This document shows positions 19,334 to 30,186 of a stretch of DNA of 64,000 nt, one piece after another. This DNA comes from Nannocystales bacterium (GTDB lineage Bacteria; Myxococcota_A; Polyangia; Nannocystales; Nannocystaceae). Within the stretch, counting starts at the first letter, position 1, and each line of letters opens with the position of its first letter. The stretch spans positions 164,571 through 228,570 of the forward strand of contig JBOEGF010000009.1 in assembly GCA_050633305.1 (NCBI GenBank). The letters are read 5' to 3'. The notes below the pieces were generated by a model that saw only the letters and a program-made list of their open reading frames with translations, was not told the DNA's origin and made no database searches. Made by a program: the position numbers and the translations under genes.

Positions 19334-21583
19334 ATGGCCTCAGCCAAGCGCGACGACCGACGGGGCGTCCCACGTCTCCTCGGGGCGCGTGATCGGACGA
19401 TGTCGCTGATCGCCGCGGTGTTGGAGGAGGAAGAGGCCGAGCGTGAAGCCCCCGCGCGGCAGCATCGAAAATCGCTCGCCCGCGGTCGTGTCGGGTTCGT
19501 GCTGACGGCCGGATTCGGCTGTGCGCTCGCTGCGTTGGCGGGTGGACTGGGAGCTTCCTGGCTCGACACGCCCGAGCTCGATCAGTTCGAGGCGCTGCTC
19601 GAGGTCGGTGGCGTCGATGCTCTCGAGGATGCGCTGTCCGAGCTGGAGGCCGTCTCCGGTGCGGACTCCTCCTCCCGTGCCCGGATCGCTCGGGCTCACG
19701 CGCGGGCCCAGCAGGCGGCCTGGGGTTCAGCCTTCATCGCGGAGGCGGACGGGTTGCTGGCGCCCGGTGACGACGGTGTGCACGCCGCTCGGGCATCGGC
19801 TCTGCTCGCAGGGATGGAGGGCACCGCGCGGGATGCCGAGGGTGCCTGGGCACGCGGTCTTGCGGCGGGTCGCAGCCTCGAAGTCACTGCGATGCATCGG
19901 GCGGTGGACGAGCTCCAAGCACAGCGTCGCCGACCGGCCGGTGCCACGCGCACGCTTGCCGCGCTCCAGTTTTCGCTCGGAGACGTCTCCGCGGCGTTTG
20001 CCACCCTCGAGGAGGTGCACACTCCGCAGGCGGCCGCCGACCGAGCGTTCCATGCCGCCTGGGTTGGACCCGTGCAGGACCAAGCTCCGATCCTCGCGCA
20101 GGAGGTTCCGGGCCGGAATTCATTGCTGAGGGCGTTTTCGGCGATCCGAGATGCGGACCACGAGCAGGCCGTTCTCGCGCTGGCCGATGCCCGCGGGCAC
20201 CTGCTGCCGTGGGACCCCGTCGCCGTGAGCACGGCGCTTCGGTTGAGTTTTATCGCCGCCGATGCGCAGGGCCTGCGGTCCTGGTCCAAGGACGACTCGC
20301 GGCCTTGGTCCGCCGAGGTCCGCACGTTGGCGGCCGCGTATGCCGACGTCCTTTCCGGACAAACCGACAGCGCACAAGCGCGATTGGACGGCTTTTCGGC
20401 CGACGCTCCGTGGGTGGCCTACCTCGGTGGATTTGTCGCCGCGGAGCAGCAGCAGTGGCCGGATGCAATGCGCCACTGTGCGGTTGCGCGACGGGGAATG
20501 GCGGGGCGGGCCGAGCTCGACGTTCTCGCCGCCTGGGTGGCGACCCATGTCTTGGACGCCGAGGTCGCACATGCCCAGCTCGTCGGGTTGTCCGAACATG
20601 CAGCGTGGGCGCCTCGGGTGTGGACCGCCTTGGCGCGAGCGTCGGAGCGTGTCGGCGCGCCGCAACAACAGGTTGAGAGGTTCTACGAGCGGGCGCTCGA
20701 GGTCGAGCATCGTCCGGCTGCGGCCGCGGCTGCGCTGGCCGCTCGGGCGTCGGGGGATGAAGCGCTTCACCTTTGGACGATGGCGAGTGAGTTCGAGCCC
20801 GCCGCGGCGCAGTACCGGGTGTCTCTGGGGATGACGCAGGTCGGCCAGGGTCGACTCGCGGAGGGGTGGTCCAACGCGAGTTCACTCGAGCATGGGGACG
20901 CCGATGCCTGGCTGTCGCTGGTCCAGCTGGCCCTCTTCCGGGCCCGTGCCGGCGGGACCGTGGATTCCCGTGCCGAGGGTTGGGTCCGCAAGGCCGAGGC
21001 TGCGGCCGCAACGACCGAAGCGGTCGAAGTGGCTCGGCTACAAGTAGCGTTCGCGCGAGGGGAGGACGTCTCGAAGCAGGCCCGAGCCTTGAGCCGGGAC
21101 TACCCGCGACGTGCCGATGCTGCGGCACTCTCGATTCGCAGCCAGGGACGCGCGGGCCGCGTGCTCGCCGCGCGCCGCGACGCGGTGCTGGCCCGCAGCC
21201 GTCTCGAGAGGCCCGAGATCCCGCTGACGACGCTGGCACTTGCAGAGGTCCTCCGCGAACACGGCGAGCTCCGAGAGGCCGCACAGCTCGCGTTCAAGGC
21301 TTGGAGTGGATTGTCGCCGGAGGCCGACGCCCTCGAGGCCCTCGTCGTGGCTCGGACGGCGGCGGACATCTGGCTGGACCTCGGGAACGCGTCCGGCGCT
21401 CGGTCGATCGCCCGAGAGCTGACGAGCCGGCTGCCGGCGAGTCCCGATGCCTGGTTGCTCCGCGCGCGTGTCCAGATCGCCGCGGGGGTGCCCGCCTCTG
21501 CGTGCCGGAGTCTGGGTCGCGCTCGAACCCTCGATCCCGATGTGGTGCTCGAAGGCTCGCGGTGCGAGGCAGACCCCGCGTAA
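19334..21583 (+). CDS. Membrane-anchored Ala-rich TPR-like protein
   Basis: One N-terminal TM, then helical repeats (P..PDAWLLRARV, ARTLDP). Confidence 0.7.
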   Translation: MASAKRDDRRGVPRLLGARDRTMSLIAAVLEEEEAEREAPARQHRKSLARGRVGFVLTAGFGCALAALAGGLGASWLDTPELDQFEALLEVGGVDALEDALSELEAVSGADSSSRARIARAHARAQQAAWGSAFIAEADGLLAPGDDGVHAARASALLAGMEGTARDAEGAWARGLAAGRSLEVTAMHRAVDELQAQRRRPAGATRTLAALQFSLGDVSAAFATLEEVHTPQAAADRAFHAAWVGPVQDQAPILAQEVPGRNSLLRAFSAIRDADHEQAVLALADARGHLLPWDPVAVSTALRLSFIAADAQGLRSWSKDDSRPWSAEVRTLAAAYADVLSGQTDSAQARLDGFSADAPWVAYLGGFVAAEQQQWPDAMRHCAVARRGMAGRAELDVLAAWVATHVLDAEVAHAQLVGLSEHAAWAPRVWTALARASERVGAPQQQVERFYERALEVEHRPAAAAAALAARASGDEALHLWTMASEFEPAAAQYRVSLGMTQVGQGRLAEGWSNASSLEHGDADAWLSLVQLALFRARAGGTVDSRAEGWVRKAEAAAATTEAVEVARLQVAFARGEDVSKQARALSRDYPRRADAAALSIRSQGRAGRVLAARRDAVLARSRLERPEIPLTTLALAEVLREHGELREAAQLAFKAWSGLSPEADALEALVVARTAADIWLDLGNASGARSIARELTSRLPASPDAWLLRARVQIAAGVPASACRSLGRARTLDPDVVLEGSRCEADPA

Positions 21584-21610: not shown

Positions 21611-22096
21611 CTACCCGATCTCGAAGTCGAAGGCGGGGATGTCGGGGTCCTCGACCGCAAACTCGACCTCGAAACCCGGAGGAGGCTCCATCTCGGACTC
21701 GGGTTCGATACCCATCGGGGGCTCGACCGCGGCTCCGGCCGCGACCTCGTCGTCCTCGTCTTCGACGAGATCGGAGAGCTCCTGAACGTCGTCTTCGTCC
21801 GGGACGTCGCCCGCGATCGACCCCGATGGTCGAAATGCGACGACCTCCACCCATTCCGCGTCGATCAGCTCCTCGAGTCGCAGGAGCGCGTCGTCGTGCC
21901 GATCGAAGTCCGAAGGCGTCCACGCGAACTCGCGCACGAGGAAGTCGACCACGCGCTCGAGCGCGTCCCGAGGCCCGTGGCGAAGGACGCGGACAAACTC
22001 CTGCGCAGGTACGGTGTCACCCGCATCGCGTTGCGAAGCCCGGCCTCGCTGACACCGGTACAGCTCGAATCGCTGTAGACCGTCGTACACCCGCAC
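21611..22096 (-). CDS. Hypothetical protein with acidic C-terminal tail; start uncertain
   Basis: Protein-like composition that fills the gap; tail EPPMGIEPESEMEPPPGFEVEFAVEDPDIPAFDFEIG. Divergent from the 22186 gene. Confidence 0.7.
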   Translation of the reverse strand: MRVYDGLQRFELYRCQRGRASQRDAGDTVPAQEFVRVLRHGPRDALERVVDFLVREFAWTPSDFDRHDDALLRLEELIDAEWVEVVAFRPSGSIAGDVPDEDDVQELSDLVEDEDDEVAAGAAVEPPMGIEPESEMEPPPGFEVEFAVEDPDIPAFDFEIG

Positions 22097-22185
22097 ACAG
22101 CCACCGTACCATGTCCACACGATACCGACCTGAGGTTGTGACCGCCGTGAATGCGCGCGAGACTTGGGAGGAGTAGCCGAGCACG

Positions 22186-24165
22186 ATGACCGCCAACGTC
22201 TTCGAGGAAAGCAAAATGACCCTGACCGCTTGGATCTCCCGTGGGAAGGGCGATCGGGCGAAAGCCAAGTTCGAGTTCGAGCAGGAAGGGGGCGCGGAGA
22301 CCGTCGAGGCTGCCGAGTTGGAGCTGGGGGGGAAGGAGGCTGGGAAGAAGAAGGTCTCCACCACCATCACGCTGCCCAAGTGCAAGGACGACGAGGACTT
22401 CTACACGCTCAGCTACAAGGTCACCTGCGAGGGGAACGAGTACCCCGGTGGTGACTTCAAGGTCTGGCTCAAGACCGCGACATTCAAGGCGGTGAACGCC
22501 GAGGACGGAAGCGAGCTTCCCGGGGTTCAGATCGAGTTCTCGCAGAAGAAGGAGCCCCTGCTTCGGACGGACGACAAGGGGGTGTCTCCGTTGCCGATCA
22601 ATGGCACTGCAGCGTTCACGGTCATCGCGAAGTCGCCGTGTTGGATCGAGAAGTGGACGACGGAGGTCGGGCGCCTGCGAGAGGCGGAAGTCTCCAAGCG
22701 CAAGTACACCGCACTGCTCTCGTATCCTCCACCCGACGACAACGCCGAGGACAAGCCGCACAAACAGTACGTCAACCTCAAGGTCGATCCGAAACTACCC
22801 AACCAGGGGAGCGTGCTCACGGTGTCGGTTGGCGCTCAGACCGATGTCGAGTGCATTCCCGGGCCGAAGGACGAGGAGGTCTACGTCAAGGTCGAGTTCG
22901 ACACGAACAACTCCAAACGGAACTCCCCGAAACCATCGATCACGGTTGGCGGGACGGTCGTGGAACCGACCAAGGGAGTGGCGGAAGGGAAGGTGCCCTA
23001 CAACGACAAGGGGGTCGCGGAGTTCACCGTGCAGCTGGGACAAGCGGGGGGCGACAAGGTGAAGGTGAGTGTTGGAGTCACGCCTGCTTGTGAGGATGGC
23101 ACCGTGTTCATCGAGAACTGGCGGAAGCTCTGGTACCAGCTCACCCTGCCGAAGGGAGCGGCGGAGCCATCGCTGGCGCGGATGGTTGGGGCGCTCGGCG
23201 AGGTCTTCGTGGAGTACGTCCAAGAGGGGAAGACCGTCGAACTGGCTGAGGATGAAGGTCCTGCGGGTTCCTGGTTTCCAGGCAAGTGGCTCAAGGATGC
23301 GGGGACGAAGTACCTGAACATCGGAAACCACAACAAGACCTACTTCCACGGCAAGTTTGTGGACGCCAAGACCCCTCACCAGGTGCACGTGCTTTGCTGT
23401 CACACCCAGTACGATGCGAAGGCGGCCTCGTGCGATACCGATGTCACCCTCACCCTCGACTCCACGAACGAGGCGACGTGGAGCGACGGGACCAAGGTGA
23501 AGGGGAAAGACTACAACGCCGGAAGCGGCTTCTTCCCCAAGTCGCTCAAGGATGGGACCAGCTCGTTGATCAGCGGAGCTTGGGAAGCCGACGACGGCAG
23601 CGTGAAGGGGAAGATCGAGGACGCGGACGTGTGGGTCGACGACTATGCCAACCATGGCTGGGTTACGGTCAAGCTCCCCGACGACGCGAAGACCTACGTT
23701 GAGGCCAAAGCGGGAAACAAGGTGGAAGTCGAGATGACCCTGCATGTCTCCAAAGGCCCGTACCTGGGCGAAGCCGATGGAAACAGCGGGTGGTTGCAGC
23801 TCATCGTGTTCAAGGCCGCCGAGAATGTCGTGAACGACGTCATGGCTCACGAGCTTGGGCACACGATGAACCAGGTCCCTCAGTCTTCAGGCGGCAAGCC
23901 CCCTGGACTCTCGGCTGTGGTGCACGGTCGGGAGTACACGGGCAACGAACACCAGGGCGGCCACTGTGCCGACGGGATGAGTTCCGCCAACTACAACGGC
24001 GGGGCCGGCAAGGTCGGTTCGGACTACGCGGGAGACTTCTCCGGAAAGGCCGAGTGCACGTGCATCATGTACGGCGAGAACGGAGCGGGATCGACATGTG
24101 CGGGCAAGTTCTGCACACGTTGCCAGCCGTTCATCAAGGCGGAAGCACTCGCCAGCCTCCACTAG
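22186..24165 (+). CDS. Signal-less 659-aa protein with C-terminal zinc-metallopeptidase-like (archaemetzincin-like) domain
   Basis: GGAGGA SD-like site upstream; MAHELGH (HELGH at 23848-23862), then HQGGHC, CTCIMYG and FCTRC; beta-rich, Lys-rich N-terminal region. Confidence 0.8.
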   Translation: MTANVFEESKMTLTAWISRGKGDRAKAKFEFEQEGGAETVEAAELELGGKEAGKKKVSTTITLPKCKDDEDFYTLSYKVTCEGNEYPGGDFKVWLKTATFKAVNAEDGSELPGVQIEFSQKKEPLLRTDDKGVSPLPINGTAAFTVIAKSPCWIEKWTTEVGRLREAEVSKRKYTALLSYPPPDDNAEDKPHKQYVNLKVDPKLPNQGSVLTVSVGAQTDVECIPGPKDEEVYVKVEFDTNNSKRNSPKPSITVGGTVVEPTKGVAEGKVPYNDKGVAEFTVQLGQAGGDKVKVSVGVTPACEDGTVFIENWRKLWYQLTLPKGAAEPSLARMVGALGEVFVEYVQEGKTVELAEDEGPAGSWFPGKWLKDAGTKYLNIGNHNKTYFHGKFVDAKTPHQVHVLCCHTQYDAKAASCDTDVTLTLDSTNEATWSDGTKVKGKDYNAGSGFFPKSLKDGTSSLISGAWEADDGSVKGKIEDADVWVDDYANHGWVTVKLPDDAKTYVEAKAGNKVEVEMTLHVSKGPYLGEADGNSGWLQLIVFKAAENVVNDVMAHELGHTMNQVPQSSGGKPPGLSAVVHGREYTGNEHQGGHCADGMSSANYNGGAGKVGSDYAGDFSGKAECTCIMYGENGAGSTCAGKFCTRCQPFIKAEALASLH

Positions 24166-24184
24166 CTCGGACGAAGGGCACGAC

Positions 24185-25264
24185 GTGAGCAACGGCCAAT
24201 TTTCACTCGACGACGACGACTTCTGGGACAACCCCACGAAGAACAAGGCACAGCTGATGAAGGGGTTGATGCGGGGCAAGCGTAGCTGCGTCGTTCTCGA
24301 CGCGCCGCGGCACGTGCCGACTCCGGACCGCAAGACCCTCCCCGTAGCGGGAATCCACGTGCGGACGCTGCGGGAGAACTATCAAATCGACCAGGAGAAG
24401 CATCTCCTCGCGGTCGCGGTGGACACCGAGGACAACACGGCAAGGGTCGGGGTTGCGTTGGGTACCGGCAAGACGCCCGGTGGTCGTCCGGTCCCGCCCC
24501 AGGAGGACCCCGGCGAGGGATTCGTCGGCAACATGTTCGTCTGCGACGTTGGCCGACAGCTCGGTGTTCCGCTGGAAGGACGGCAGGCCGTCACCATGAT
24601 GGTGCGCGAGTACCTGTCCAACACGTGCACGCTGGAGGTCGGTCCGAGCATGCACGCGTTCGAAGACGACGAGGTCCGCCGGTACGTCGAGGCGCGTCGC
24701 GGAGCGTTACAACCTCCGCGAGTCCGGTCGGTGTGGCCGCCGCTTCCACAGATCTCGGGCGCGATCACGCGAGCGCTCCAGGGGAAGCCGGACCCGTTCC
24801 CCAACTACAAACAACGGGATGACTCCCCGCCTGTCCCCGATGATGTCGGCGTCGAGTTCACGATCGACCGAGTGACCGAGGCAATCCCGGGACGGCGCTG
24901 TCTGTTGCGCGGCGCGTTTCGGCTCCCGGTCACCGCTCACGAGCGCGTGGGCGTGGATGCGGACACAGGAAGACTGCGCGATGTCGGCTGCCCGGGCGCA
25001 ACGGCGGTGGTCGGCATCCATCTCGTCGCAACGGGCACCACCCTCACCGGGCCCTTTGTCTTTCCTCTACGGGTCCCCAGCTTTGATGTGCTGGAGTCCA
25101 GCGGAGATACGACCGCCACGGGGTTCTTCAACATCGACCTCTTCGGGCTTGATGCGATGCCCAAGCGTGCTGGCACGTACTTCTTCACCGCATTTTCACG
25201 GGAGGTGACGCGCGGGCCTGTCTACGTCGGTCTCGCGCCTTCGGTCGGCGTGAGTGAGGGATGA
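24185..25264 (+). CDS. Hypothetical cytoplasmic protein, paralogue of 25261-26361
   Basis: GTG start after GAAGG, 19 nt after the upstream stop; shares ordered motifs with the next gene. Confidence 0.75.
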   Translation: MSNGQFSLDDDDFWDNPTKNKAQLMKGLMRGKRSCVVLDAPRHVPTPDRKTLPVAGIHVRTLRENYQIDQEKHLLAVAVDTEDNTARVGVALGTGKTPGGRPVPPQEDPGEGFVGNMFVCDVGRQLGVPLEGRQAVTMMVREYLSNTCTLEVGPSMHAFEDDEVRRYVEARRGALQPPRVRSVWPPLPQISGAITRALQGKPDPFPNYKQRDDSPPVPDDVGVEFTIDRVTEAIPGRRCLLRGAFRLPVTAHERVGVDADTGRLRDVGCPGATAVVGIHLVATGTTLTGPFVFPLRVPSFDVLESSGDTTATGFFNIDLFGLDAMPKRAGTYFFTAFSREVTRGPVYVGLAPSVGVSEG

Positions 25265-26361
25265 GTTCTCAAGCCCCGTGGTCGCGGTGCGTTTGGGGAG
25301 CGTTTGTCGTCCTGGGCTTGGGCTGCAACGACGCGAAGACCGTCGATCCGCAGACGCCTGCCGCAACCCTCGAGCCTCCCGGTGCCGTCGACCCCCCTGA
25401 ACCTGAACCTGACCCTGAACCTGAACCTGAATCCGAACCCGTGCCTGCGACTCCGATGACTCCAGATCCCGCTCCACAAATCCACGCGCTGGGCATCGAT
25501 GACGCCGCATTCTTCGACGGTGGCACGAGCAAGGCGATGGCGGTCGCGCGTCGGGAGCTGCGAAAGGGGGGAGTGCGGGTCCTCCGAATCGACGCTCCAT
25601 TCGTCGTGGACACCGCAACACAGTCTTCTCTGCCAGTTCATGGTGTGTTTGCGCGAGAGGACTCGGACGCCGCCGATCTGGAGCAGAGCAGCATTGTCGT
25701 CGCCGTCGACGTGACGAACAACGCGTTCCATGCGGGCACGGCACTGCGAAGTTCGAAGTTGTCGGGCAAGGGCGGAGGCTCCAAGGAAGGCTCGAAAGCG
25801 GGGGCGAAAGCGGATGCAACGCAAGCCGCGTTCGTGGCGTCGTCGTTTGACCTCGATGTGTTCGAGCGACTGCCCGAGCTGCAGCGCAAGGGCGTGAACG
25901 TCCAGCTCTACGTGGTCCAGCAGGGCCTGCTCTCCAACGGCACGCGCTGCGCTCTGAGCGGGACTGGAACCCATGCCGCACAAGGCTTGCCGACCAAGCT
26001 TGCGGCAAACCTGGAGGAGCACGCGGACTCGCCGAAAGCGCCCGCGGGAGGCGGCGTGGTGCTCTCCGTCCCCGGCGAGGCTGTCTCCGAGCCCGGAGCA
26101 TCCGTCGTCTTGCGCGGTGCTGTGCGTGCGCGTGGCGAGAGCGCCCGGGTGTTCTTGATGGCGACGAGCGACAAGGCGTCCGGCCCGTTCAGTTTTGTCG
26201 TGGACGTCCCGCTCCGCGAGGGGGTCGGTCACTTCAACGTCGACGTCGTCGGGGATGAGGGACCGCCGAAACGGCCCGCGCAATGGCACTGGTATGCGTT
26301 CATGGGAGAGAGCAGCGCGGGGCCGGCAGACCTGCTGCTCACGCCCGGCGCGCCCTGGTAG
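25261..26361 (+). CDS. Hypothetical lipoprotein, paralogue of 24185-25264
   Basis: FVVLGLGC lipobox, PEPEPDPEPEPE linker, then a domain similar to the preceding gene; ATGA overlap. Confidence 0.8.
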   Translation: MSSQAPWSRCVWGAFVVLGLGCNDAKTVDPQTPAATLEPPGAVDPPEPEPDPEPEPESEPVPATPMTPDPAPQIHALGIDDAAFFDGGTSKAMAVARRELRKGGVRVLRIDAPFVVDTATQSSLPVHGVFAREDSDAADLEQSSIVVAVDVTNNAFHAGTALRSSKLSGKGGGSKEGSKAGAKADATQAAFVASSFDLDVFERLPELQRKGVNVQLYVVQQGLLSNGTRCALSGTGTHAAQGLPTKLAANLEEHADSPKAPAGGGVVLSVPGEAVSEPGASVVLRGAVRARGESARVFLMATSDKASGPFSFVVDVPLREGVGHFNVDVVGDEGPPKRPAQWHWYAFMGESSAGPADLLLTPGAPW

Positions 26362-28503: not shown

Positions 28504-30186
28504 CTATCCGGCGGCGGGTGGGATCGACACGACCCGCAGGCCGGCACCGCCAGGATAGGCGAAGCTGACGGCCTCGTCGTACCCGAACACGGACACACCG
28601 ATGCGTCCGCGGGCCTCGATGATGTGCTGCCCCTCGTCGACTGGCAGCTGCGCGTAGCGGAACTGCTCTCCGTCGAGAACGCCGAGCATGCTGTACCGCG
28701 ACTCTGGGACGTCGTCGCCGTCGAGCGTCACGGTGCCGTTTCCTTGGGCGACGACCGAGATGTGGGTCTCGACGTATCCCGCGGGCACGACGAAGGCGAG
28801 GCGGGACTCGAACTGTAGCGCGGAGGGGACGACCATCATCGCGGGATCGCCGACACCCTCGCCGGGGAGAAGCTGGTTGCTCAGGAGGAACTGCGCGAGG
28901 CCGAAGGCGTGCTCGGGGTCGGCGGACGCGACGGTAAACGGCGCGTCGGTTTGGAACTCCAGCGTCTCACCTGAATTCACGTGGGTCGGGGCGCCATCGG
29001 GTTTCTCGGGGCAGTACAGCAGCTGTGTGCCGTCGAAGGAGCCCGTGATTCGGTACAGAGCGGGGTCGTCTTCGCCGTCACCGGCCACGCTGGGCGGCGG
29101 GGCGACCGCGTAGCGGCTGCTCCAGGCGGTGCGCGGAGAAAGCTGATGCTCGAGGTGGTCGGCGCAGCACTCTCCAGCTTCCAGCGGTTCGATCGTGGCC
29201 ACGTTTCCACCGAACACGGCGACGGGGGCATTCGCAGTGACTCGGGTCCCCGAGAGGTTGCCCGTTTCCCCAGTTCCTTGAGTGGAGACGATCGTCCAGA
29301 CCTGGCCTTCGCCCATGACCTTGGTCTTGGTGGTTCCTCCCGCGAGTGGAGCGGTGGGGTCGATCTGGACCTGGGTCCCGTCTTGAGTCGCGACGACGCT
29401 GACGAAGGCGCCCGCGTTGCGCGGGTCGGTGTCGCTGGGTCCTTGGGACAAGAGGATCGCCGAGCCCGTGACCGCGACATAGTCGTCGCCCAGGGCGTGC
29501 GTGGGCAAGAGCAACGACGCGTCGTTGGAGTAGACCTCGGTGGTGTTGTCGAGGGGGTTGAACTGGTACGCAACGATGGGGGTGTTGCTGGAGATCCGGT
29601 ACGCCAAGCCATCCGCGGTTCCGAAGTTCGGCTCGATCGACGCGGAAGGGAGGGTGAAGGTGTGGGTTTGGCGAGGCTCGACCAGTGCCATCGCAAACGG
29701 GATCCCCTCACCGGGCAGGTACACATCGACCTGCGCAGCTGCGAGCCCGGAGGGGTTTCCGACCGCGACGGAGAACTGTTGGTCCGCAGCCGGAGGGCTC
29801 ATGAACGTGCCGCGGTCGTCGTTGGGCAGGTCGACCGCCCAAAACTCGCAGCCCAGGTTCGTGCTGATCGTGTCGGCCTCGTCGCAGCCGAACTCGAACG
29901 TCACGCCGCCGTCGGGGGCACCGACGTCAAACTTGAACCCACCGTCGTCGGTGGTCGATCCGCTGGATGTGGCTGCGGCGTCATCCGTGCGGCAATGCGC
30001 AGGGGTTGCATCGGAGCCCCCAGATGCTGCCGTAGGGTCGGGGAGCGGGAGGCCGCCGGGACCCGCCGACGCTCCCGAAGTCCCGCTTGCACCTGGCAGC
30101 GGTGGCGGGTTGCCCTCCTCGACCTCGCCACAGCCCAAGAGCGCGGTCGCGATGAGCAATGCCCAGGGGCTCTGCGGTGCCGTCAC
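28504..30186 (-). CDS. IgGFc-binding-domain lipoprotein
   Basis: ALLGC lipobox; NLGCEFWAVDLPN, YQFNPL, SNDASLLLP, DHLEHQ, GDPAM, SFAYPGG. Confidence 0.85.
   Translation of the reverse strand: MTAPQSPWALLIATALLGCGEVEEGNPPPLPGASGTSGASAGPGGLPLPDPTAASGGSDATPAHCRTDDAAATSSGSTTDDGGFKFDVGAPDGGVTFEFGCDEADTISTNLGCEFWAVDLPNDDRGTFMSPPAADQQFSVAVGNPSGLAAAQVDVYLPGEGIPFAMALVEPRQTHTFTLPSASIEPNFGTADGLAYRISSNTPIVAYQFNPLDNTTEVYSNDASLLLPTHALGDDYVAVTGSAILLSQGPSDTDPRNAGAFVSVVATQDGTQVQIDPTAPLAGGTTKTKVMGEGQVWTIVSTQGTGETGNLSGTRVTANAPVAVFGGNVATIEPLEAGECCADHLEHQLSPRTAWSSRYAVAPPPSVAGDGEDDPALYRITGSFDGTQLLYCPEKPDGAPTHVNSGETLEFQTDAPFTVASADPEHAFGLAQFLLSNQLLPGEGVGDPAMMVVPSALQFESRLAFVVPAGYVETHISVVAQGNGTVTLDGDDVPESRYSMLGVLDGEQFRYAQLPVDEGQHIIEARGRIGVSVFGYDEAVSFAYPGGAGLRVVSIPPAAG

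Follow-up and report, generated by a model that had tools for sequence, protein, structure and literature searches.

The locus

The stretch under study, here called the window, comprises 64,000 nucleotides (nt) of contig JBOEGF010000009.1 (C9) from a Nannocystales bacterium. It carries a module of four genes, encoding P0001 to P0004, which, judging from sequence, is likely a new family and variant of effector-immunity pairs with a metallopeptidase as effector, belonging to type VI secretion systems (T6SS). P0001 is a zinc protein without a signal peptide. Its gene is followed after 19 nt by that of P0002, which in turn overlaps the gene for the lipoprotein P0003 by an ATGA (25261-25264). P0002 and P0003 are paralogues (26% identity over 361 columns, E 3e-17). 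The gene for the acidic-tailed P0004 is divergent (Table 1). None of the four proteins has a Pfam or NCBIfam match above cut-off, and scans for promoters and terminators of the locus stayed at chance level. The nearest named relatives of the locus are Nannocystaceae and other Myxococcota assemblies. A preliminary description of this DNA had reported the same layout, coordinates, spacing, coupling and paralogy, and no recognisable family for any of the proteins; all of this was recovered. It had also noted that secretion genes are missing from the window, and VgrG and TssC matches are indeed absent from C9.

One search gave 53 matches to P0001, and 57 loci (L001-L057) were collected across several phyla. 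Genes were called with a home-made caller, and low-GC loci were missed.

Table 1. Features of the module and acidic-repeat genes upstream of the protease in related loci
Feature	Position	Strand	Description
P0004	21611-22120	-	169 aa; acidic repeat tail; net charge -29; probable start 22096
P0001	22186-24165	+	659 aa; signal-less metzincin-fold zinc protease; putative T6SS cargo effector
P0001, three β-sandwich (Ig-like) domains	22186-23121	+	residues 1-95, 96-172, 175-312
P0001, catalytic domain	23122-24162	+	residues ~313-659, with inserted β domain
P0001, HELGH zinc motif	23848-23862	+	residues 555-559
P0001, H593-C594	23962-23967	+	H593 is the likely third Zn ligand
P0001, Met-turn C626-I-M628	24061-24069	+
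P0001, C643xxC646	24112-24123	+
P0002	24185-25264	+	359 aa; GTG start; cytoplasmic; without room for a leader
P0002, loop 92-102 with K96	24470-24472 (K96)	+	predicted over the active-site cleft
P0003	25261-26361	+	366 aa; lipoprotein paralogue of P0002; Cys22 at 25324-25326
Acidic-repeat gene	L007:9481-9975
Acidic-repeat gene	L031:978-1283
Acidic-repeat gene	L035:3124-3660
Acidic-repeat gene	L043:3424-3876

P0001, a putative zinc protease with a predicted metzincin fold

By eye the N-terminus of P0001 has no hydrophobic stretch, and in the AlphaFold2 model (42-row alignment, mean pLDDT 90.7) a β-sandwich begins at residue 3. Lysine is abundant relative to arginine (9.4% vs 1.7%); the net charge is -20. 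Three immunoglobulin (Ig)-like sandwiches precede the catalytic half. The second of them is transthyretin/carboxypeptidase-regulatory-like (VIA matches over residues 96-173: 3e8v, Z 8.3; 5aq0, Z 7.4). Relatives have varied N-termini, and in L012, L017, L033 and L045 OmpA plus PG_binding_1 replaces the first part. This β-sandwich part would likely serve delivery or targeting.

The C-terminal HEXXH domain noted earlier was found and now extends over the whole C-terminal half. H555, E556, H559, H593, C594, C626, C643 and C646 are identical in all 64 partner-paired family members; M628 is kept in 60 of them and replaced by Leu in the other 4. The top 22 VIA matches are all zinc metalloproteases (Z 8.5-11.6), nearly all of them metzincins by title, led by the reprolysin-type metalloprotease 1dth (Z 11.6, root-mean-square deviation (rmsd) 3.7, 165 residues aligned). 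One of the 22 is titled only 'chaperone-substrate complex' (PDB 6o38, Z 9.7); we take it to be the CpaA-CpaB complex of Acinetobacter. CpaA has tandem β domains. A Foldseek search with the whole model gave generic Ig-repeat matches only (TM score <0.2), all Atlas matches were below 0.9, and Pfam and NCBIfam scans of 42 zinc-family members returned no family for the catalytic domain.

P0001 shares with metzincins an HEXXH with the catalytic Glu, a Met-turn and, by prediction, the fold. The canonical spacing HEXXHXXGXXH is not kept: the motif reads HELGHTMNQVP and the candidate third His follows 33 residues on. As modelled, P0001 is a long-spacer metzincin variant and not an archaemetzincin. Cys594, 626, 643 and 646 are predicted to form a candidate Cys4 structural site, either with zinc or as disulfides.

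Some relatives are longer. Three of them (L024:9824-14107, L018:15918-18677 and L021:15733-18489) have a peptidoglycan-binding domain after the protease, and the L024 protein ends in a second HExxH-Cys domain. P0033 (1003 aa) joins the protease to a C-terminal domain which by eye is α/β hydrolase-like.

The partner P0002 is predicted to cover the active site

Of 75 HExxH genes with at least 500 nt of downstream sequence, 68 have a relative of P0002 within 450 nt downstream; the partner profile was built from these same loci and the hits of an earlier search. The seven unpaired cases comprise a frame artefact (L018), a frameshifted locus (L019), two loci in which a diverged gene comes next (L033, L037) and three long forms with some other gene behind them. 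Tandem cassettes of zinc protein and partner occur in L010, L013-L016, L018, L021-L024, L034, L035, L038, L040 and L046, often two or three in number, and each protease has a partner of its own. Pairwise identities of proteases and partners correlate (Spearman 0.43, 0/500 permutations, uncorrected for kinship). In L021, L032, L036 and L046 the partner copies outnumber the proteases. The Fibrobacterota loci L032 and L036:2084-7870 carry arrays of three to five partner copies that look like immunity islands; some array copies possess a lipobox and a strong internal ribosome-binding site.

P0002 is modelled as two Ig-like sandwiches (residues 31-157 and 221-351). Fold searches yielded generic β-sandwich matches only (best Z 7.2), which is still compatible with a known family. 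For the partner domain, too, no family emerged when 33 partner-family or partner-position proteins were scanned against Pfam and NCBIfam. The nearest named Atlas clusters are BsuPI proteinase inhibitors (0.80), a lead only.

The predicted complex of P0001 (residues 12-659) with P0002 (2-352) has an ipSAE of 0.72; the best of three controls reached 0.00. The ipSAE mark is attained by 116 of 157 solved complexes and by 2 of 215 mismatched pairs, figures which apply only roughly to our self-made alignments. The runs agreed in at least 90% of contacts, with a partner pLDDT of at least 79. The predicted contacts of P0001 (408-423, 443-447, 516, 523-529, 541, 552, H555, E556, 588-591, 611-617 and 630-634) all fall in the catalytic half. 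K96 and T97 of the P0002 loop lie beside Y526, and P0002 strand 111-117 pairs with residues 416-423. Such a geometry is expected of an inhibitor, and P0002 is predicted to be an immunity protein that blocks the active site.

The toxin-immunity or protease-inhibitor system proposed in the preliminary description is supported by the pairing of the genes, by the predicted binding over the cleft and by the T6SS context of the family (see below). A different role for the partner has to be weighed. P0001 might be T6SS cargo with P0002 being above all a chaperone for its folding or loading, in effect a pro-domain acting in trans, so that immunity would be secondary or left to the lipoprotein. Strand pairing with the inserted β domain (413-423) makes up much of the predicted interface, 6o38 is among the fold matches, and a cytoplasmic form of the partner, from a gene of its own or from a predicted internal start, appears nearly universal, with an exported form being optional. 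Further, CpaB of Acinetobacter, whose gene lies immediately downstream of that for the metzincin CpaA, serves as a secretion chaperone (PMC4713064). Yet the model also covers the catalytic His and Glu and the edge strand, four loci hold extra partner copies without a protease of their own, and the known T6SS adaptor families DUF4123 and DUF2169 are separately present in some loci. CpaB, moreover, is membrane-anchored and serves a Sec/type II secretion system (T2SS) substrate, whereas P0001 has no signal peptide. We consider the chaperone role unlikely.

The loop Lys covaries with Q408/D410 of the protease: it occurs in 32 of the 33 pairs that have these residues and in 3 of the 28 that do not (61 pairs, counts 32/1/3/25, Fisher 9e-13). 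Because in a quick tree this comes down mostly to a single deep split, with a few losses besides (L022 second copy, L043, L018/L021), we regard the covariation as a lead and not as demonstrated co-evolution.

P0003 and proposed immunity in two compartments

A hydrophobic leader ending in Cys22 and a linker of Pro/Glu type mark the start of P0003, whose lipobox deviates from the canonical form at -3 (G-L-G-C22). Hydrophobic leaders ending in Cys are also found in the second copies of L001-L004, L006 and L009. P0003 is likely a lipoprotein and would be the envelope-located immunity copy. It retains the loop Lys of P0002 and has a strand resembling the one that pairs with the protease. Its internal Met66 is preceded by anti-Shine-Dalgarno (anti-SD) pairing of only -1.7 kcal/mol.

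A partner with a signal peptide or lipobox exists in 31 of the 57 loci (30 by a hydrophobicity scan, L026 by eye). In 16 loci the exported copy comes after another copy, as in the window: L001-L004, L006, L008, L009, L012, L017, L026, L027, L032, L036, L037, L041 and L042. The first copy is exported in 15 other loci; L032, counted among the 16, also has an exported first copy. Around the domain start, within -8/+5 codons, all of the 15 contain an in-frame ATG, as against 16% of 1,377 control windows. For 14 of these 15 internal ATGs the anti-SD pairing reaches -3 kcal/mol or better vs 37.5% of 256 control internal ATGs (Mann-Whitney p 3e-5), and in this pairing they are indistinguishable from 27 true starts (p 0.72). 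Among exported later copies 12 of 17 keep such an ATG, with mixed ribosome-binding signals. T6SS immunity genes with two possible starts have been reported. In some distant relatives a single partner gene may make both forms via an internal start; in the lineage of the window a duplication would have split the cytoplasmic and the exported jobs. The earlier idea of protection in two compartments gains independent support from exported copies and predicted internal starts in other phyla.

The link to type VI secretion

The host genome has 9 VgrG matches and 2 full TssC matches, the latter on contigs C18 and C26, whose gene clusters are read as two T6SS clusters. The cassette is an orphan because its own contig has no match to either protein. 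Effector-immunity loci of Myxococcus xanthus are likewise orphans away from the T6SS cluster, as described in PMC10433427. Of 48 carrier genomes, each represented by one locus (48 of the 57 loci), 42 have a TssC match. Among 40 relatives TssC is present in 10/10 genomes with a P0001 match vs 14/30 without one; kin are not independent in this count.

At the level of the loci, vgrG or DUF4123 occurs in at least 9 of 57. Pfam-verified vgrG genes are in L010, L012, L013, L016, L019 and L030, DUF4123 in L034, L046 and L055, DUF2169 in L010, and Rhs in L011, L013, L016 and L019. In L023 and L042 weak GPD matches, short of the cut-off, are found directly upstream of cassettes. These marker counts are lower bounds because the Pfam scans covered 128 + 63 + 89 of the 598 called proteins. 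Relatives adjoin vgrG, DUF4123 and DUF2169, and the T6SS clusters of the host itself lie elsewhere. Three features of T6SS effector-immunity pairs are found, namely a leaderless putative effector (by eye), a partner encoded directly downstream and a T6SS link at the level of the family; binding by the partner is predicted from the model.

Spread and divergence of the family

At E<=1e-3 the P0001 family counts 1,048 clusters (50% identity) and matches no Pfam or NCBIfam family. It is spread over Myxococcota, Planctomycetota, Fibrobacterota, Acidobacteriota, Pseudomonadota and others. P0001 was matched in 6/6 genomes of the same genus, in 3/17 others of the same family (distant matches) and in 0/16 further genomes.

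Both flanks of the module look ordinary: the left one consists of topoisomerase genes, a methyltransferase and a TPR-like gene, the right one of DUF2293 and aspartokinase. Against the six closest loci identities are 54-59% for the protease, 45-51% for P0002 and 28-34% for P0003; the flanking lysC has 81-88% (five loci) and parE 89-95% (three loci). A housekeeping role of the module was considered and is rejected: divergence is far faster in the module than in its flanks, and 30 of the 40 relatives searched gave no match. The TPR-like gene (19334-21583, plus strand) is membrane-anchored, convergent with P0004 and 45-68% identical among the closest loci. A probable lipoprotein gene at 28504-30186 (minus strand), whose L001 orthologue matches Pfam IgGFc_binding, is not related to the module.

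In the host genome tblastn detected no close paralogue, and a hidden Markov model search found one distant zinc protein on contig C14 and no further partner gene. This protein (G000:C14:287228-290689, minus strand; 1,153 aa) has by eye a subtilase-like region, followed by a C-terminal distant relative of the zinc domain (E 8.5e-12) with HEIGH, HC, CVM and CxxC; no partner-family gene comes after it. It sits behind a gene for 211 aa (290729-291364, minus strand) which by eye resembles peptidoglycan-binding genes adjoining vgrG.

P0004 and other small acidic genes

An alignment with orthologues points to codon 9 as the probable start of P0004. Its divergent position is kept in the six closest loci (L001-L005, L009). 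The N-terminal domain of about 90 aa profile-matches an extension fused to the zinc proteins of L010, L013, L015, L016, L019, L020 and L022 (hhalign probability 58%, E 1e-4, score 30.3 vs 19.9 for the best of 60 column shuffles). P0004-like domains also form small genes in L012, L030, L034, L055 and L057. Of 150 genomes of the class that were searched, 10 contained a total of 13 further matches. BLASTP comparison with annotated neighbours places 2 of them next to vgrG-like and 5 next to DUF4123-like genes; the remaining 6 head longer proteins of 300-600+ aa (L069, L072, L076, L078-L080). This suggests that the P0004-like domain marks further polymorphic effectors. In L070, L074, L075 and L077 a very short gap separates the P0004-like gene from a divergently oriented vgrG-like or DUF4123-like gene, resembling the arrangement in the window.

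Upstream of the protease, L007, L031, L034, L035, L040, L043 and L047-L049 carry small unrelated genes whose acidic repeats recall the tail of P0004; possibly their products are acidic partners for the Lys-rich N-terminus. From the kept position, the fused extension, the T6SS-linked neighbours and the recurrence of acidic genes we therefore conclude that P0004 likely belongs to the module, probably as a T6SS-associated accessory or adaptor. Its domain is unnamed; the comparison covered sequences other than those of PIX, RIX and FIX.

Interpretation

We think it probable that the module encodes a leaderless protease which is fired by the T6SS into neighbours, is silenced in the cytoplasm by P0002, and from which P0003 shields the envelope when sister cells fire. 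P0001 would fold in the cytoplasm of the producer, where P0002 would keep the folded protease silent before firing and would also protect against cytoplasmic hits. Upon injection P0001 would cut proteins of the neighbouring bacterium. P0003 would guard the periplasm against the protease of sister cells, since injection is the only obvious way for a signal-less protein to get there. P0002, by way of the Lys96 loop as the model predicts, and P0003 would both block the active site, and P0004 would act as a delivery accessory. The role of the module would be competition or kin discrimination. The preliminary description had named predation or kin discrimination; the latter is favoured here and the former is not, because, according to PMC10433427, the myxobacterial T6SS has shown no role in predation.

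Several observations weigh against this interpretation. The contig has no vgrG or TssC match, 6 of the 48 carrier genomes have no TssC match either (completeness not given), and most loci show no T6SS marker among the scanned genes, many contigs being short. The first two would fit an antibacterial protease-immunity pair that is delivered by another route, e.g., vesicles, lysis or a different injection system. The adjacency of vgrG, DUF4123 and DUF2169 in several lineages argues against such a route, as does TssC in carriers as distant as Fibrobacterota, Acidobacteriota, Planctomycetota, Verrucomicrobiales and Eisenbacteria; we hold it to be very improbable. Genus-wide retention and shared flanks in the closest loci make the module less mobile than many polymorphic toxins. 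Retention of this kind would suit an exported nutritional or anti-eukaryote protease, no interbacterial weapon, whose inhibitors shield the producer's own proteins. The tandem Ig-like domains ahead of the metzincin recall CpaA-type proteases of host proteins, and the BsuPI lead for P0002 points the same way. An exported inhibitor, however, is hard to account for unless the enzyme enters the periplasm from without, the fusions of relatives to OmpA and peptidoglycan-binding domains indicate bacterial envelopes, and tandem diversified cassettes with fast divergence fit conflict. On balance this role seems rather improbable.

The interpretation as a T6SS effector with immunity in two compartments is also burdened by about 24 of 55 partner-bearing loci that have cytoplasmic copies only and no exported form. 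The exported set was selected by eye and has near relatives (L034/L040) among its members, and the internal start is predicted from the nucleotide sequence. Catalysis by P0001 is not guaranteed because archaemetzincins with the full catalytic set were inactive on the substrates tried (PMC3427221).

A broader joint proposal may be put forward, tentatively and with considerable doubt as to the whole: widespread T6SS metzincin toxins would be active in both cytoplasm and periplasm; Ig-fold, substrate-like plugs would insert a Lys loop into an acidic pocket (Q408/D410/E529) and so report enzyme specificity; immunity would reach both compartments by duplication or by two starts; and a P0004-type domain, fused or split, would route the toxin to the spike.

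To our knowledge few T6SS protease effectors have been described. The module adds a large protease family across several phyla and a new predicted family of metzincin inhibitors. It makes testable how two compartments are shielded from one toxin, by gene duplication or by an internal start codon, and whether an inhibitor loop residue predicts protease specificity. More effectors might be found by searching for the P0004 domain.

Comparison with known systems

In structure, archaemetzincins are close. AmzA is a fold match (Z 10.2, rmsd 3.5, 166 aligned, 18% identity) and shares the residue order HExxH...H-C...C-x-M...C-x-x-C with four invariant Cys, which in archaemetzincins bind a structural zinc (PMC3427221). 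The fingerprint HEXXHXXGXXHCX4CXMX17CXXC is not found in P0001: the order is kept and the spacings differ, i.e., 33 instead of 5 between H559 and H593, 31 instead of 4 between C594 and C626, and 14 instead of 17 between M628 and C643 (AmzA values from PMC3427221). Unlike archaemetzincins, P0001 is multi-domain, has an inserted β domain and possesses a dedicated partner.

The CpaA-CpaB pair of Acinetobacter resembles the module in that a metzincin gene is followed by a dedicated partner gene. CpaA exits via Sec/T2SS; CpaB, a chaperone in the membrane, has an SRPBCC-like domain (PMC4713064). In contrast, P0001 is leaderless, and P0002 is cytoplasmic, Ig-like, unanchored and predicted over the cleft. 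Lacking a leader on the protease and a membrane anchor on the first partner, the module does not belong to this class of T2SS protease-chaperone pairs.

Tox-MPTase1-5 and PVC-metallopeptidase are alike in a C-terminal HExxH toxin domain behind variable N-termini; the entries for these Tox-MPTases in PMC3482391 name no immunity family. P0001 differs in having neither RHS repeats nor the HExxHxxQ-E signature, and none of 42 zinc-family members matches these Pfam families at E<=0.05. TsxE-TsxI of M. xanthus, likened here by description, is also a genus-conserved effector-immunity locus away from the cluster; the account in PMC10433427 describes no dual-compartment partner for it. The literature within our scope, which took in few subscription papers and no supplements, contained no description of this protease family or of dual-start T6SS immunity.

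A close functional parallel is offered by the Tpe-Tpi pairs, i.e., VgrG2b C-ter/PA0261 of Pseudomonas aeruginosa and Tpe1/Tpi1 of Acinetobacter baylyi. They share with the module an HEXXH zinc enzyme, a downstream partner (its binding being a prediction here), the T6SS context and envelope-located immunity (likely so here), which is a lipoprotein in some members (PMC6899460). The Tpe core, as described there, is a minimal one of three helices and two strands, whereas P0001 is modelled as a complete metzincin that has a Met-turn, the candidate Cys4 site and three Ig-like domains, and it carries no VgrG fusion. Toxicity of VgrG2b is confined to the periplasm, so that its immunity protein has to be exported (PMC6899460); here a cytoplasmic partner form appears nearly universal, by duplication or by a predicted internal start. 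A search against solved chains gave no sequence match below E 0.6, and VgrG2b C-ter is absent among the 50 VIA matches listed. By description the module differs from Tpe in fold class, domain layout and the cytoplasmic partner; it would work like a Tpe-Tpi pair, with no homology detected among solved chains and the VIA matches listed.

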